In this document: positions 3,193-8,796 of the stretch, piece by piece | Position numbering within the stretch: position 1 is the stretch's first letter | Layout of the letters: the number at the start of each line of letters is the position of its first letter | Sequence record: OR786310.1 | Strand: one strand, 5' to 3' | Origin: Escherichia phage ETEC-TG | DNA: 64,000 nucleotides | Position numbers and translations under genes: made by a program | Notes under the pieces: model-generated | Told to the model about the DNA's origin: nothing | Database searches by the model: none | Seen by the model: the letters and a program-made list of their open reading frames with translations, nothing else

Positions 3193-3264
3193 GGCCCTGT
3201 AGCTCAATGGGAGAGCTGTCGGCTCATAACCGATAGGTAGCTGGATCGAAACCAGCCAGGGCCA
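3193..3264 (+). tRNA. tRNA-Met or Ile2 (anticodon CAT)
   Basis: Hand-folded cloverleaf: acceptor GGCCCTG/CAGGGCC, anticodon loop CT-CAT-AA, T-loop ATCGAAA, encoded CCA. Confidence 0.7.
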
Positions 3265-3269
3265 CCAAC

Positions 3270-3341
3270 GTCTTTATGGTGTAATGGATAGCACAGGAGT
3301 CTTCTAAACTCTTAGTCAAGGTTCGATTCCTTGTAAAGACA
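3270..3341 (+). tRNA. tRNA-Arg (anticodon TCT)
   Basis: Acceptor GTCTTTA/TAAAGAC, anticodon loop CT-TCT-AA, T-loop TTCGATT, CCA follows. Confidence 0.7.
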
Positions 3342-3540
3342 CCAGAACATTTTAACATGAATTAGCTCAAGTGATTTGAACCCACTACTGATCATGGTGG
3401 CAGAGAATGAGGCAAGTATGTCAGACATTATAAACAAAGGCCACGGTTATATTAGAAGACATAAATGCTCGAAGAGCACCGTTCGTGGAGAACGGGGGTT
3501 GGTGGAGTCACCATTCATGGTAAAATGTTTTAAAAAACTA

Positions 3541-3570
3541 TTGACAACTAACATTATTTTATGTTAGATT
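3541..3570 (+). promoter_or_regulatory. sigma70-like extended -10 promoter inside the tRNA cluster
   Basis: TTGACA - 18 nt - TGtTAGATT. Confidence 0.5.
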
Positions 3571-3578
3571 ATAAGTAT

Positions 3579-3666
3579 GGAAGGGCAAATCGACGTGGCG
3601 ACGAAAACGGTCTTGAAAACCGCCGAGCTTGAAAGAGCCTTGGGAGTTCGACTCTCCCTCCTTCCG
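3579..3666 (+). tRNA. tRNA-Ser (anticodon TGA), class II
   Basis: Acceptor GGAAGGG/TCCTTCC, anticodon loop CT-TGA-AA, long variable arm, T-loop TTCGACT, CCA follows. Confidence 0.65.
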
Positions 3667-3673
3667 CCAGATT

Positions 3674-3756
3674 GGTAGATTGGTGAAATGGTAGCCACGA
3701 CAGTTTGCTAAACTGTAGTCGGAAACGGCGTGTAGGTTCGAGTCCTACATCTACCG
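3674..3756 (+). tRNA. tRNA-Ser (anticodon GCT), class II
   Basis: Acceptor GGTAGAT/ATCTACC, anticodon loop TT-GCT-AA, long variable arm, T-loop TTCGAGT, CCA follows. Confidence 0.65.
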
Positions 3757-3900
3757 CCAAGTTCTTTTTAATATAGCTTACTTTAGCAGAGTAAATCTTC
3801 GGCAAGTGGCGGTAACCACTTTACCGATAACTCATAGTTAGTGGTGTGAACACTGGCTATTTTAAAAAGAATTTAAAAAGAATTTAAATATTAGTATTTA

Positions 3901-3985
3901 GGTGAGTTAATTCCGTAGGGGTAGCGGGGCAGACTGTAAATCTGTTATCATTGCGATTCGGGTGGTTCGACTCCATCACTCACCA
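3901..3985 (+). tRNA. tRNA-Tyr (anticodon GTA), class II
   Basis: Acceptor GGTGAGT/ACTCACC, anticodon loop CT-GTA-AA, long variable arm, T-loop TTCGACT, CCA follows. Confidence 0.65.
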
Positions 3986-3994
3986 CCAAATTAA

Positions 3995-4077
3995 GATGAG
4001 TTGGCTGAATGGTTTAAGCGGCGGACTGTTAATCCGTGTTCGAAAGAACGATATAGGTTCAAATCCTATACTCATCG
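3995..4077 (+). tRNA. tRNA with class II scaffold and apparent GTT (Asn) anticodon; identity uncertain
   Basis: Acceptor GATGAGT/ACTCATC, anticodon stem GCGGA/TCCGT with loop CT-GTT-AA, 15-nt variable arm with GAAA hairpin, T-loop TTCAAAT, CCA follows. Confidence 0.5.
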
Positions 4078-4170
4078 CCAGAATTATGGACTTGTAGAGT
4101 TAAGGTAAACCCCCAGTCGCCAAGAGGCTTCTGGAATTGCAGGTATCGAATCCTGCCGAGTCCCAGCTTT

Positions 4171-4242
4171 GCTCCTATAGTATAATGGCTATTACAACGG
4201 TTTTGTAATCCGTGGATCTCTGTTCGATTCAGAGTGGGAGCA
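4171..4242 (+). tRNA. tRNA-Thr (anticodon TGT)
   Basis: Acceptor GCTCCTA/TGGGAGC, anticodon loop TT-TGT-AA, T-arm CTCTG-TTCGATT-CAGAG, CCA follows. Confidence 0.65.
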
Positions 4243-4522
4243 CCAACACAACATTAAGAGCACTGTGATTGATCGTCGTATCCTGTGCACAAGGTCTGTT
4301 CGAAAGACAGTGTTCTTAGTATTGTGTTGATCACACAAAAAAAGAGTTACCTGAAACTTGACCGGAGTAGGGTTGGATGGGGCAAAAGAAGAAGCGGCTC
4401 TCCCATCGACAGCAACGAAGAATAATATTTGACTTTGGTTTTGTATTATTTTAAGTTAGCTTACCGAACGTAGGGCTAGTCACCCAACGGGATACTCGTC
4501 ACTGTCCCACTCAATAAAACTA

Positions 4523-4552
4523 TTGACAACCAATAGTAAAATGTAGTATAGT
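4523..4552 (+). promoter_or_regulatory. sigma70-like promoter upstream of tRNA-Gly
   Basis: TTGACA - 18 nt - TATAGT. Confidence 0.5.
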
Positions 4553-4563
4553 AAAGATGTAGG

Positions 4564-4634
4564 GCGTTCTTGGTGTAGCGGTAGCATTCCGTCCTTCCAA
4601 GTCGGCGGCACGAGTTCGATCCTCGTAGAACGCT
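4564..4634 (+). tRNA. tRNA-Gly (anticodon TCC)
   Basis: Acceptor GCGTTCT/AGAACGC, anticodon loop CT-TCC-AA, T-arm ACGAG-TTCGATC-CTCGT, CCA follows. Confidence 0.65.
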
Positions 4635-4735
4635 CCAAATTATTTAATAAAGGGTTGCCAGAAAACTTTCTCTTTTACTCATGGTTTTCTCCTTCTCTCA
4701 CACCTCTTCTGGTTGCCCTTCATTAAATGATTTAT

Positions 4736-4808
4736 TGGTTTGTAGTGTAGTCCGGTAGCACACGACACTTTGACTGTCGTAGGTTTGGTTCAAATCCAGA
4801 CAGACCAG
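4736..4808 (+). tRNA. tRNA-Gln (anticodon TTG)
   Basis: Acceptor TGGTTTG/CAGACCA, anticodon stem CGACA/TGTCG with loop CT-TTG-AC, T-loop TTCAAAT, CCA follows. Confidence 0.65.
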
Positions 4809-4884
4809 CCATATAACAAAGGTGAGTCACTACCTCAAGTGTGAAGTTAAAAACGAGGAGCCGCCGAACACTTTCTTTTGCGGT

Positions 4885-4958
4885 GTACCTTTAGAATGTT
4901 ATGACGGAATTTAGCTCAGTTTGGTAGAGTGTACGCTTTGGGAGCGTATTGTCGCAGG
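4885..4958 (+). tRNA. tRNA-Pro (anticodon TGG)
   Basis: Acceptor CGGAATT/AATTCCG, anticodon stem TACGC/GCGTA with loop TT-TGG-GA, T-arm GCAGG-TTCGAAT-CCTGC, CCA follows. Confidence 0.7.
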
Positions 4959-4967
4959 TTCGAATCC

Positions 4968-5038
4968 TGCAATTCCGACCAATTAAATGTTTCGTAGTTC
5001 AATGGTAGAACCCACGACTGATAATCGTGAGATACAAG
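4968..5038 (+). tRNA. tRNA-Ile (anticodon GAT)
   Basis: Acceptor TGTTTCG/CGAAACA, anticodon stem CACGA/TCGTG with loop CT-GAT-AA, T-loop TTCGATT, CCA follows. Confidence 0.7.
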
Positions 5039-5119
5039 TTCGATTCTTGTCGAAACAACCAGTTTCCCGTTAGACTTACAGGATAAGAGTTCCACAATTT
5101 ATTGTGACGCTGGTTCGAA

Positions 5120-5195
5120 TCCAGCACGGGATACATAATAGCGGGATAGAGGAGTCTGGTCGTCCTCGCCAGTTTCATATGCTGGAGATCATTGG
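5120..5195 (+). tRNA. tRNA-Met or Ile2 (anticodon CAT), mismatched 1:72 pair
   Basis: Anticodon stem CCAGT/GCTGG with loop TT-CAT-AT, T-arm ATTGG-TTCAAAT-CCAAT, acceptor 3' TCCCGCC, CCA follows; position 1 (A) does not pair with 72 (C). Confidence 0.6.
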
Positions 5196-5333
5196 TTCAA
5201 ATCCAATTCCCGCCTCCAAATATCGCTTGCCAGCGGTATCTTTGAAGACCTTGCCTGGTTCCTTCTAAGATGGAGGGGTGCGACTCCTTAACGCACAATT
5301 ATAATAAAGCATTTCAAATTAACAGTATTTATT

Positions 5334-5357
5334 AGCCTCCTTATTGGAGGCTTTTTG
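5334..5357 (+). terminator. Rho-independent terminator closing the tRNA cluster
   Basis: Hairpin AGCCTCC-ttatt-GGAGGCT followed by TTTTTG. Confidence 0.6.
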
Positions 5358-6720: not shown

Positions 6721-8796
6721 GTGGCAAAGAAAAAGGCAGCAGGTAGTTTAGCTGGAGTAGATATTGAAGTAAAGGCTCAACCAGGTAAACAGACTCTTGC
6801 AATGGATTTAATGCCAGAAGTTATGATTTATGGTGGTGCCGCTGGATGTGTTTCTGCTGAAACGGAATATCTTACAAAAGATGGTTGGAGGCAGATTAGT
6901 GAATATTCGGGAGAGGATATTTACCAATACAATCCTAAGAATAAGCGTTTAGAATTGGTAACACCTTATTTTGTAGAATACGATTTAAATGGAGATAACC
7001 TATACAGAATAACAAATGGTGTAGGATTATTCCAAGAACTTAGTATGGAACACCGTTTTGTATTCTATAAGAAAAAGAAATCAAAGAAACATTTCGAGAT
7101 TCTTGTAGGAGATCTTATTGCATTACAGCAAATAGGAAAACCCCTGCAAGGTTATGTAGAAAATCCATTCGGTAAACGTGTTCCTTTTAACATACCTGGT
7201 AAAAAGAGCACTTACTTAAAAATACACGAGGTTATTTCAACAGATGATAAGAAATATTGTTTTGAGACTCCAAGCAGCTATATTGTCTTTAGACGTGGCG
7301 ATCACTGCTTCGTTACTGGGAATAGCGGCAAGTCTCGTCTGCTATTGCTGAAAGCTTTAAAATACGCCTACAAAGACCCTTTGTTTGGTGGAATACTTTT
7401 CCGTAAGAACACCACTGCTCACCGTAAACCAGGTGGTCTGTTTACAGAAGCAAAACGTTTGTATCTTCCTTTACAACCACATGTAAAAGAAAGTACAATG
7501 GATATCATTTTTGAAGCCACTGGTGGTGGAACCCTCAAATTTGACCATTTGGAAAATGATAACGTAACAGCAGAAACAAACCATCAGGGTACACAGTATT
7601 CAATGGTAGGTTTTGACGAGTTAACCCACTTCACACAATATGAAATGCTCTATCTTCTGGGACGTATGCGTTCAGAGTCAGAAACAAGTTTCATGTTGTG
7701 CACATGTAACCCTGACGCAGATAGTTGGGTTTTGAATTGGGTGTTACCTTATCTTGATGAGGGTGGTTATCCTAGAGAAGATATGTGTGGTAAACAAAAA
7801 TATTTCATCATTGTTAACGATGAACCTGTTTTTGCTGACACACCTGAAGAACTGAAAGAAAAATATCCAGAAAACTGTTTCATGGAAAACCCTAATACAG
7901 GGGAGACAGTTGTTATTGAACCACAAACTTTCGTATTTATTGGTGGGACAATATTTGATAACCCAGAACTCATTAGGCTTAACCCTAATTACTTAGCACA
8001 GCTTAAATCACAAACAGCTATCAAAAGAGCACAGCTTCTGGACGGTTGTTGGTTTGCACGTATCCAGAAAGAATCTTTCTTTCAACGTGAATGGTTACAT
8101 AAAATATCTTATAAAGATGTTCCTAACAATCTTAAACTAATGCGAGCATGGGATAAAGCTGTTTCAGTTCCTACAGAAACTTACCGTTATCCAGACTATA
8201 CAACATCTGTCAAAATGGGTAAAGACCAAGATGGTAATATCTACATCTTTGGCGACTATGATTATGATGCTGTGGATGAGAAAAGTAAAATTTTCGGAAG
8301 GTTTCGAAGACTACCTGGGGAAAGGGATAACCTGATTCTAAATCAATGTAAGATTGATGGACCAGAAGTTACAGTAGTGCTTCCTAAAGACCCATCTGGT
8401 GCTGGGACAATAGAATACACAGAGTCTGCAAAGAAACTTATTCTAGAGGGTTTTGTTGTTAAACCAGATGCTATGCCAGGCAACAAGAAAAAACTTCAGC
8501 GTTTTATGCCTTTTAGTAGTGCGTGTCAAAACGGCTTTGTTTATATTGTTGAAGATTCTTTCCCTAATGTGGAAACTTTAACCCACTTTTATAAAGAATT
8601 GGAATCTTTCAATGGTGAAAGATCTACAGCCACTATTAAAGATGACATTCCCGATGCTGCTGCCTCTTGTTTTAATACTCTGTCAAAAGAGAATACTTTC
8701 AAAGCAGTAGCAATCCCTACAACAACAAATGCTCCTACAGGATACAGTAGAATGAACAGCGGATTTCACCAACCGTATAGTGTCCGTAAAAGATAA
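6721..8796 (+). CDS. terminase large subunit, interrupted by a putative mini-intein
   Basis: GTG start after AGGAGGG RBS; removing the insert reconstitutes Walker A YGGAAG|SGKS; Walker B-like MVGFDE; directly upstream of portal. Confidence 0.65.
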   Translation: MAKKKAAGSLAGVDIEVKAQPGKQTLAMDLMPEVMIYGGAAGCVSAETEYLTKDGWRQISEYSGEDIYQYNPKNKRLELVTPYFVEYDLNGDNLYRITNGVGLFQELSMEHRFVFYKKKKSKKHFEILVGDLIALQQIGKPLQGYVENPFGKRVPFNIPGKKSTYLKIHEVISTDDKKYCFETPSSYIVFRRGDHCFVTGNSGKSRLLLLKALKYAYKDPLFGGILFRKNTTAHRKPGGLFTEAKRLYLPLQPHVKESTMDIIFEATGGGTLKFDHLENDNVTAETNHQGTQYSMVGFDELTHFTQYEMLYLLGRMRSESETSFMLCTCNPDADSWVLNWVLPYLDEGGYPREDMCGKQKYFIIVNDEPVFADTPEELKEKYPENCFMENPNTGETVVIEPQTFVFIGGTIFDNPELIRLNPNYLAQLKSQTAIKRAQLLDGCWFARIQKESFFQREWLHKISYKDVPNNLKLMRAWDKAVSVPTETYRYPDYTTSVKMGKDQDGNIYIFGDYDYDAVDEKSKIFGRFRRLPGERDNLILNQCKIDGPEVTVVLPKDPSGAGTIEYTESAKKLILEGFVVKPDAMPGNKKKLQRFMPFSSACQNGFVYIVEDSFPNVETLTHFYKELESFNGERSTATIKDDIPDAAASCFNTLSKENTFKAVAIPTTTNAPTGYSRMNSGFHQPYSVRKR
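6847..7323 (+). other. putative mini-intein (159 aa, Cys43 to Asn201) in the terminase P-loop
   Basis: Begins CVSAETEYLTKDGW, internal S-x-x-H block (LSMEHRF), ends ...FVTGN with +1 Ser; no endonuclease domain. Confidence 0.55.

Follow-up and report, generated by a model that had tools for sequence, protein, structure and literature searches.

A hairpin in the variable region of a probable asparagine tRNA of Escherichia phage ETEC-TG and of related viral tRNAs

According to the textbooks, long variable arms occur only in the tRNAs for serine, leucine and selenocysteine (Sec) and in the tyrosine tRNAs of bacteria, and the exceptions, the nev-tRNAs and the allo-tRNAs, mistranslate. The nev-tRNAs of nematodes combine a long arm with glycine or isoleucine anticodons and are charged with leucine. 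Here we describe a gene of similar outward form in Escherichia phage ETEC-TG: within a stretch of 64,000 nt (OR786310.1; the window in the following) a tRNA with the asparagine anticodon GUU, termed tRNA(GUU), carries a variable region of 15 nt with a hairpin. Like the nev-tRNAs and the bacterial allo-tRNAs it joins a long arm to the anticodon of a class I amino acid. The allo-tRNAs (PMC7609411) have 8/4 or 9/3 acceptor/T stems, whereas the stems of the tRNA in the window are 7/5; the bodies of nev- and allo-tRNAs carry Leu, Ser or Ala identity and are served by an enzyme that ignores the anticodon. Asparaginyl-tRNA synthetase (AsnRS), in contrast, reads the anticodon and, since all of its determinants are kept in tRNA(GUU), anticodon and identity should agree here.

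A second group of related systems comprises phage tRNAs that act against nucleases of bacterial immunity. Two Toprim nucleases, PARIS AriB (PMC12409363) and P2-OLD (PMC12445682), have been shown to cleave the host tRNA-Asn(GUU). AriB cuts between positions 40 and 41 next to UAAU, and its second monomer contacts U16-U17 in the D-loop (PMC12409363); the cuts of P2-OLD lie within CNG motifs, behind C28 and behind C40 (PMC12445682). On the phage side, the tRNA-Lys, tRNA-Thr and tRNA-Asn of T5 act against AriB (PMC12409363), a phage tRNA-Thr against P2-OLD (PMC12445682) and the tRNA-Tyr of T5 against the retron Eco7 (PMC11555353). The known escape tRNAs have substitutions at or near the cleavage sites or a shortened anticodon stem (PMC12409363, PMC12445682). 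The tRNA(GUU) of the window resembles these tRNAs in being an isoacceptor of a host tRNA cleaved by such nucleases and in being clustered with Thr(UGU) and Tyr(GUA) tRNAs (in phage phi92 also with Lys(UUU)). Unlike the known escape variants it shows no change at the cleavage sites and has an added hairpin instead. Short and long forms of one isotype, served by one synthetase, are described for the type I and type II tRNA-Leu of Streptomyces coelicolor (PMC6614811). There a normally long-armed isotype has lost its arm, and the setting is cellular, not viral.

The source phage, an E. coli phage of the genus Phapecoctavirus (Stephanstirmvirinae), is phAPEC8-like, and in public records, e.g. that of phage vB_EcoM_ASO2A (ASO2A), the gene is plainly labelled tRNA-Asn-GTT. 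The complete gene comprises 86 nt on the + strand (3995-4080; gatgagttggctgaatggtttaagcggcggactgttaatccgtgttcgaaagaacgatataggttcaaatcctatactcatcgcca) with G73 at 4077 and an encoded CCA at 4078-4080. ARAGORN called it as tRNA-Asn(gtt) at exactly these positions with the anticodon at position 34, the only GTT tRNA in the window. Rfam RF00005 matched 3995-4077 with 62 bits, the gathering score being 29 (E=4.8e-11), which places the gene in the tRNA family; in the alignment to this model 12 nt are inserted in the variable region, and the anticodon register agrees with that of ARAGORN. In the cloverleaf the 5' strand of the acceptor stem (GATGAGT, 3995-4001) pairs with ACTCATC at 4070-4076, beginning with G1-C72, A2-U71 and U3-A70. 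The D arm (4004-4019, GCTGAATGGTTTAAGC) has a stem of 3 bp (G10-C25, C11-G24, U12-A23), unpaired G13 and A22 and a loop with GG. It is followed by the anticodon arm (4021-4037, GCGGA-CTGTTAA-TCCGT), in which the anticodon GTT (4028-4030; G34 U35 U36) reads AAC and AAU, by the variable region (4038-4052, GTTCGAAAGAACGAT) and by the T arm (4053-4069, ATAGG-TTCAAAT-CCTAT). The variable region consists of a hairpin GTTC-GAAA-GAAC (4038-4049) and the unpaired bases GAT (4050-4052), so that its 15 nt depart from the class I architecture with a variable loop of 4-5 nt.

An earlier note on this DNA, made without database searches, had folded the tRNA by hand and had come to the same structure: a perfect 7-bp acceptor stem, a 15-nt variable arm with a GAAA-capped hairpin (here a 4-bp stem and three unpaired nucleotides), a canonical T-arm (a T stem of 5 bp in the cloverleaf) and an anticodon loop CT-GTT-AA. 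Its coordinates 3995-4077 were exact, and the encoded CCA that it mentioned lies just beyond them. It had proposed to run ARAGORN and covariance models on the gene, and both now return the Asn anticodon GTT and no standard Ser or Leu anticodon.

To the alignment of 19 long homologues with MAFFT we added two class I tRNA-Asn, those of E. coli (asnT) and of Kuttervirus Maynard; as a control the pairing partners were slid by 1-3 columns. In the proposed cloverleaf 99.2% of the cells are paired compared with 35-50% for the slid partners, and the covariation score is 0.710 versus 0.08-0.18. The possibility left by the earlier note that its fold was off by a register is ruled out. Compensatory changes were found in every helix and across divergent phage families; in the acceptor stem all seven pairs covary, and the D arm, the T arm and the variable region are supported in the same way. 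In the helix of the variable arm, where 98.6% of the cells are paired, all four pairs change on both sides, e.g. pair 45-55 (AU 10, UA 9) and pair 46-54 (GC 9, CG 5, UA 3, AU 1, UG 1). For this reason the hairpin of the variable region is genuine and maintained by selection. We also considered that the gene might be an annotation artefact or a tRNA gene in decay with an insertion gained by chance, as neighbouring genes are flagged as pseudogenes in relatives (Tyr-GTA and a CAT tRNA in Mt1B1_P17; Ser-TGA and Phe in phi92). This explanation is effectively refuted by the covariation of every helix together with the Rfam score and the conservation of the gene, which is 96-100% across the genus Phapecoctavirus.

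The two class I tRNA-Asn show a clean gap of 11 columns exactly at the hairpin, and therefore the hairpin can be read as an insertion at position 45. The region then looks like G44, the hairpin and N46-A47-Y48, i.e., a normal five-base loop with position 45 replaced by the hairpin. All members of the family were retrieved by the pattern GGACTGTTAATCC, a scan for a GUU anticodon arm followed by a T arm, and comprise 89 distinct long GUU tRNAs; in 60 of them the hairpin has a GNRA cap. As a possible source of the long tRNA we considered the adjacent tRNA-Tyr, which could have been converted by the changes GUA to GUU and A73 to G73. The acceptor stems (GGTGAGT and GATGAGT) and the anticodon stems of the two genes are similar here, but not in phi92, and only 2 of the 89 long GUU tRNAs have a tRNA-Tyr as their nearest body. 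This origin is not supported.

In E. coli the Asn identity is determined by the three anticodon bases and G73, and tRNA-Lys can be given this identity by transplantation (PMC9976931). The tRNA of the window possesses all four determinants of E. coli AsnRS (G34, U35, U36 and G73), and a stretch of 19 nt (positions 25-43) with the loop CUGUUAA is identical to all four E. coli tRNA-Asn genes, asnT, asnU, asnV and asnW. The presumed partners are the same as for E. coli tRNA-Asn: AsnRS, Tgt for queuosine and the t6A enzymes. It differs from the E. coli tRNA in the variable region (15 nt instead of 5 nt), in the pair 1-72 (G1-C72 instead of U1-A72) and in the D stem (3 bp instead of 4 bp). With the class II tRNAs for Ser, Leu and Tyr it shares a variable region of at least 10 nt with a stem-loop, the 3-bp D stem and an enlarged D loop, but it is set apart from them by the anticodon of a class I isotype, by G73, which excludes Leu and Tyr, and by acceptor pairs and an arm orientation that are not those of tRNA-Ser. 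The class I loop itself is a property of all known tRNA-Asn and not a documented determinant of AsnRS.

The earlier note had concluded from the long arm that such a tRNA could insert Ser or Leu at AAY codons. Its observation of a long-armed tRNA with a GTT anticodon stands, whereas the proposed insertion of Ser or Leu is not supported. LeuRS and TyrRS of E. coli require A73, and G73 is a documented antideterminant for the two enzymes (PMC9976931); the insertion of Leu is thus unsupported, as G73 blocks LeuRS. A tRNA-Tyr would in addition have the anticodon GUA, whereas the tRNA of the window has U36 along with G73 and is Tyr-like only in the geometry of its arm.

Serine required a closer comparison, as SerRS takes no account of the anticodon and recognizes its tRNAs by the variable arm, G73 and acceptor pairs. 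A Ser-accepting or dual-identity tRNA would be charged by SerRS and would place Ser, either exclusively or competing with Asn, at AAY codons, leading to a statistical substitution of Asn by Ser in the proteins of the phage. Several features of the tRNA agree with this and at the same time weigh against an Asn tRNA. It has G1-C72, C11-G24 and G73, although G73 does not discriminate since it is common to the Asn identity set, and its D arm resembles that of tRNA-Ser (GCCGAGTGGTTAAGGC). When the variable region and the anticodon were masked, its body was about equally close to the best tRNA-Ser (0.754) and the best short tRNA-Asn (0.738). The long forms of T5-like phages have G2-C71 in addition to G1-C72. 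Finally, a comparable arm of 4 bp with a GAAA cap is present in the tRNA-Ser(GCU) of the same phage, and for this reason the short arm alone does not exclude SerRS.

We therefore compared three sets of unique tRNAs, 115 phage tRNA-Ser, the 89 long GUU tRNAs and 108 short tRNA-Asn, in which the discriminators were assigned by anchoring on acceptor complementarity. In the tRNA-Ser pair 1-72 is G-C in 87%, pair 2-71 is G-C in 95% (109/115) and pair 3-70 is A-U in 83%, with G73 in 63% and U73 in 28%. The long GUU tRNAs have U-A (58%, 52 tRNAs) or G-C (35%) at 1-72, G-C (40%, 36), C-G (36%, 32), U-A (11%) or A-U (10%) at 2-71, a mixed pair 3-70 and G73 in 92% (82/89). The short tRNA-Asn show U-A in 68% at 1-72, C-G (51%, 55) or G-C (41%, 44) at 2-71 and G73 in 86%. 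The acceptor-stem profile of the long GUU tRNAs is thus that of the short tRNA-Asn and not that of tRNA-Ser. G1-C72 and G2-C71 are invariant in E. coli tRNA-Ser; of the combination G1-C72, G2-C71 and A3-U70 the tRNA of the window shares only G1-C72 and has A2-U71 and U3-A70 instead. C2-G71, present in the 32 family members just mentioned, is a known anti-SerRS element. U1-A72 is the pair seen in host tRNA-Asn and a determinant for the amidation of Asp-tRNA-Asn by GatCAB (PMC9976931), and its retention in most environmental long GUU tRNAs is an Asn-specific signature. In its usual U1-A72 and mixed 2-71 pair the family resembles bacterial tRNA-Asn.

The geometry of the arm points in the same direction. 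The numbers of unpaired nucleotides 5' and 3' of the stem are mostly (1,1) in tRNA-Ser (53/115; stem mostly 4-7 bp), (1,2) in tRNA-Leu (stem 3-5 bp), (1,3) in tRNA-Tyr (stem 3-4 bp) and (1,4) or (0,3) in the long tRNA-Asn (stem 3-4 bp). The tRNA of the window, with 0-1 nt before and 3-4 nt after a stem of 3-4 bp, does not have an arm of the Ser type, and among the class II tRNAs it comes closest to tRNA-Tyr. The nearest body was a short tRNA-Asn for 58 of the 89 long tRNAs, a comparison which is biased as the short set had been retrieved with the same anticodon stem. Moreover, the AsnRS determinants are kept across the family, about 6% of the codons of the phage would be at risk, the long form and an ordinary tRNA-Asn are alleles in T5-like phages, and similar hairpins in Cys, Trp, Thr and His tRNAs that keep their own discriminators do not fit serylation. 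The insertion of Ser at AAY codons is accordingly unsupported, and we regard a Ser-accepting or dual-identity tRNA, also one with merely partial or low-level serylation and a resulting Asn-to-Ser ambiguity, as very unlikely though conceivable.

Against the reading as a tRNA-Asn one further point has to be set: class II synthetases approach the tRNA from the side of the variable loop, and an extra arm could hinder AsnRS. On balance we consider it likely that the gene encodes a functional phage tRNA-Asn which would be charged with Asn and which carries a selected small hairpin (3-4 bp, usually GNRA-capped) at position 45. If AsnRS charges the long form, a class IIb synthetase would tolerate an extra arm, which would be useful for tRNA engineering and orthogonal pairs.

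The long form is not confined to the window. Long tRNA(GUU) genes of 83-86 nt were found in phi92 (Justusliebigvirus), in a T4-like Klebsiella phage and in three genera of the Demerecviridae (Epseptimavirus, Tequintavirus AKFV33 and Novosibvirus Stubb). The tRNA-Asn of Kuttervirus Maynard, with 75 nt, has the same type of D arm and the same T stem as that of phi92. In IMG/VR a scan with class II spacing gave 105 contigs among the matches listed, and a scan allowing both spacings gave 66 short, 11 long and 3 intermediate forms among 80 matches listed. In this unbiased sample about 1 in 6 viral tRNA-Asn genes with the searched anticodon arm (~14/80, among the matches listed) has an expanded variable region. 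The same class II spacing gave 24 stretches among the matches listed for 185,579 species genomes, and the clearest of these cellular matches belong to dense tRNA arrays or to phage-like clusters with 7-11 tRNAs. With the viral and cellular frequencies taken as estimates from the matches listed, the long-armed tRNA-Asn is strongly enriched in viruses and nearly absent from cellular genomes. A BLAST search of 5,426 E. coli genomes with a query that was too short returned only a chance match in yobD. The long form is present in hundreds of genomes of coliphages and Salmonella phages, including most relatives of T5, and is annotated as plain tRNA-Asn in all of them; in the searchable literature we found no description of a long-armed phage tRNA-Asn. 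An unexplained isotype-model inconsistency is noted for a phage tRNA-Asn-GTT in one paper (PMC12482277), and such inconsistencies of phage tRNAs may have a structural basis.

Some loci are of interest in their own right. In 14 of the 103 viral loci with a long tRNA(GUU) a short tRNA(GUU) is encoded on the same contig (e.g. L057, L111, L038, L036, L034, L012, L061, L086 and L044 of our set). The anticodon stem of these short copies deviates from the canonical NNGGA/TCCNN which the long copy keeps, and such a pair of differing Asn tRNAs within a single phage hints that their roles are not redundant. Among the cellular matches, two complete chromosomes and one contig of Micromonospora/Verrucosispora (L238, L239, L242) have 90-nt long-armed tRNA(GUU) genes within arrays of 32-36 tRNA genes in about 8 kb, which also contain tRNA-Leu genes of type I length (74-77 nt). 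Isolated long GUU tRNAs outside tRNA clusters were seen in a metagenome-assembled genome (MAG) of Devosia (L253), in L246 and in archaeal MAGs (L240, L241); the Devosia tRNA combines a D arm of the tRNA-Leu type (GCGGAATGGTAGACGC) with G73. These isolated tRNAs may come from the cell, from a prophage or from mis-binned sequence.

In T5-like phages both forms occur, with 291 records of the long form and 134 of the short form of T5 in the phage database. The downstream flanks of the long gene of AKFV33 and of the short gene of T5 are identical, including 'RNA3' of T5 (compared: L005 of AKFV33, 279-361, and L009 of T5, 7953-8525). It follows that the long and the short tRNA-Asn are alleles at one site in near-identical T5-like genomes. 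The short tRNA-Asn of T5 is part of the Lys, Thr and Asn set which rescues cells and phages from PARIS (PMC12409363), and the interchange of both forms at one locus argues that the long form may do the same job. Between tRNA-Cys and the short gene T5 has an additional open reading frame, T5.069, for which the annotation in DaisyDussoix gives a putative homing endonuclease; this suggests that the replacement of the alleles could be driven by endonuclease homing. A remark in the RefSeq record of T5 that its tRNA-Asn is not convertible to an amber suppressor is irrelevant to the long form, the gene of T5 being short. Beside the tRNA region of T5 lies T5.081 (L009, 15618-16052), annotated as 'tRNA amidotransferase', which shows no obvious link to the form of the tRNA-Asn.

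The design of a hairpin within the loop was also found in other class I phage tRNAs, consisting of about 1 nt, a hairpin of 3-5 bp that is often GNRA-capped, and 3-4 nt (example loci L016 and L066 (T5-like), L023, L036-L038, L040 and L092). Among unique tRNAs it is present in 13 of 65 Thr(UGU), 8 of 109 CAU, 7 of 16 UAU, 5 of 48 Cys, 5 of 46 Trp, 4 of 53 Asp, 4 of 63 Glu, 2 of 46 His and 1 of 64 Lys(UUU) tRNAs; these frequencies are rough as the contigs had been chosen for carrying a tRNA-Asn. The hairpin-bearing tRNAs keep the typical discriminators of their isotypes (Cys U73, Trp G73, Thr A/U73, His C73).

What could the phage gain from this tRNA? In the open reading frames of the window with at least 150 amino acids AAT and AAC make up 6.1% of the codons (3.09% and 3.01%), and ACA 3.09%. 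The usage of all three codons is above that of E. coli, and the tRNA set of the phage as a whole fits its frequent codons, e.g. ACA, GGA and AAY. If AsnRS of the host charges the tRNA and AAC and AAU are read by it on the ribosome, as is most likely, it would supply Asn decoding for a phage with about 6% AAY codons, and it could keep Asn decoding going when defence nucleases deplete the host tRNA-Asn(GUU). The hairpin might then sterically shield the tRNA near the 40|41 cut or mark it as non-host, and the anticodon arm would stay intact for AsnRS, for the enzymes of queuosine-34 and t6A-37 and for decoding. A steric or discriminatory role of this kind is a reasonable inference because the point at which the hairpin leaves the tRNA is immediately above the 3' strand of the anticodon stem.

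Several observations weigh against such a shielding function. The anticodon arm is identical to that of the host, with neither a substitution at a cleavage site nor a shortened stem; it keeps the AriB site UAAUC|C and both CNG motifs of P2-OLD. The conservation of this arm across the family is partly built in by the search pattern. In the long forms of T5-like phages U28-A42 breaks both CNG motifs, and the short form of T5 has a strongly diverged anticodon stem. The tRNA-Asn of Bas34, a PARIS-sensitive relative of T5, was insufficient for escape (PMC12409363); it may be of the long or the short form. The hairpin is also present in isotypes that are not known as nuclease targets (Cys, Trp). We therefore propose only tentatively that the hairpin shields the tRNA from AriB and P2-OLD or marks it as non-host.

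The exact copy of the host target in the anticodon arm would also suit a decoy, an RNA that titrates tRNA-targeting nucleases or host factors, with a hairpin that blocks cleavage or use by the ribosome and with little role in translation. Some viral tRNAs are possibly competitive inhibitors of AriB (PMC12409363), and the 14 loci with an additional short tRNA-Asn of divergent anticodon stem would fit a division of labour. But acceptor stem, G73, T arm, the GG of the D-loop and CCA are conserved and covarying, as in a tRNA that is charged and competent for EF-Tu and the ribosome. The long form is the only tRNA-Asn found in the examined stretches of Phapecoctavirus and of most T5-like phages, and the retention of U1-A72 in most environmental members suggests constraints by aminoacylation or transamidation. 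A pure decoy is improbable.

Another explanation, which we regard as rather unlikely, is that a functional tRNA-Asn has a hairpin with a housekeeping role unrelated to defence, which has spread by descent and by gene exchange among phage tRNA clusters. It could stabilize an A+T-rich tRNA core, guide the processing of a polycistronic precursor or serve as a handle for a phage factor. In agreement with this the GNRA caps are generic stabilizers, found not only in the long Asn hairpins but also in 43-48% of the Ser and Leu arms, the gene lies 6 nt from a tRNA-Tyr in a dense cluster, the anticodon arm is free of escape mutations, and the occurrence in several isotypes not known as nuclease targets is readily accommodated. 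On the other hand, the enrichment in viruses and an incidence that is highest for Asn and Thr(UGU), both among the three main targets of AriB, suggest conflict-driven selection, and the alternation of short and long alleles in near-identical T5-like genomes argues against a general need in folding.

If, returning to shielding, the hairpin does protect from tRNA-targeting immunity, it would provide a second escape route besides the mutation of cleavage sites, and this would bear on candidates for phage therapy, as phAPEC8-like and T5-like phages are widely used. It is conceivable, though doubtful at present, that hairpins in the variable loop are a general and previously unrecognized phage strategy by which a host-copy anticodon arm is kept, fully compatible with synthetase, modification enzymes and ribosome, and immune nucleases are evaded. 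In that case the phage tRNAs for Asn, Thr(UGU), Cys and Trp that have long arms would make up a structural class of anti-defence tRNAs, and the nucleases evaded would be those, such as PARIS AriB and Toprim nucleases of the OLD type, that dock on the anticodon stem and the core.

The tRNA(GUU) gene is part of a tRNA gene cluster on the + strand (3193-5218) that was delimited by ARAGORN, Rfam and the annotation of ASO2A, with which the cluster is 99.2% identical. Eleven tRNAs were detected: Met/Ile2-CAT, Arg-TCT, Ser-GCT, Tyr-GTA, Asn-GTT, Thr-TGT, Gly-TCC, Gln-TTG, Pro-TGG, Ile-GAT and Met-CAT; Ser-TGA is a further member annotated in relatives. The upstream neighbour of tRNA(GUU) is the class II tRNA-Tyr(GTA) (3901-3988, +; 39 bits in Rfam, tRNA-Tyr in ASO2A, no call by ARAGORN), and tRNA-Thr(UGU) lies downstream. 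Since the spacer between the Tyr and the GUU gene is only 6 nt (3989-3994), both are probably co-transcribed. A promoter-like site, TTGACA-18-TAGATT (3541-3570, +), is located upstream of the Ser/Tyr/Asn/Thr group, and a terminator-like hairpin with a T run (5334-5352, +) follows the last tRNA of the cluster, where a terminator is annotated at the equivalent place of ASO2A. The positions of these sites are sensible, but both are consensus matches only, and promoter-like sites are not more numerous in the window than expected from shuffled sequence.

Three members of the cluster are unusual. The tRNA-Tyr(GTA), whose acceptor and anticodon stems are similar to those of the adjacent tRNA(GUU), has an odd D region with three extra bases after position 9, and its equivalent is called 'tRNA-Pseudo-GTA' in one related record. 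The tRNA-Ser(TGA) at about 3578-3668 (+) stems from the tRNAscan-SE annotation of ASO2A and carries a pseudogene flag in phi92; in the window this region gave no call by ARAGORN and nothing in the Rfam scan at the gathering score, and a search begun at 3600 gave a sub-threshold, partial match resembling tRNA-Sec (3600-3666, 26.5 bits). The tRNA(CAT) at 5140-5218 (+) has 79 nt, the anticodon at position 37 and the loop TTCATAT and is kept in phi92. With an apparent 5-bp D stem (GAGGA...TCCTC) and a seeming mismatch at the pair 1-72, it could be an atypical tRNA of the initiator or the Ile2 kind.

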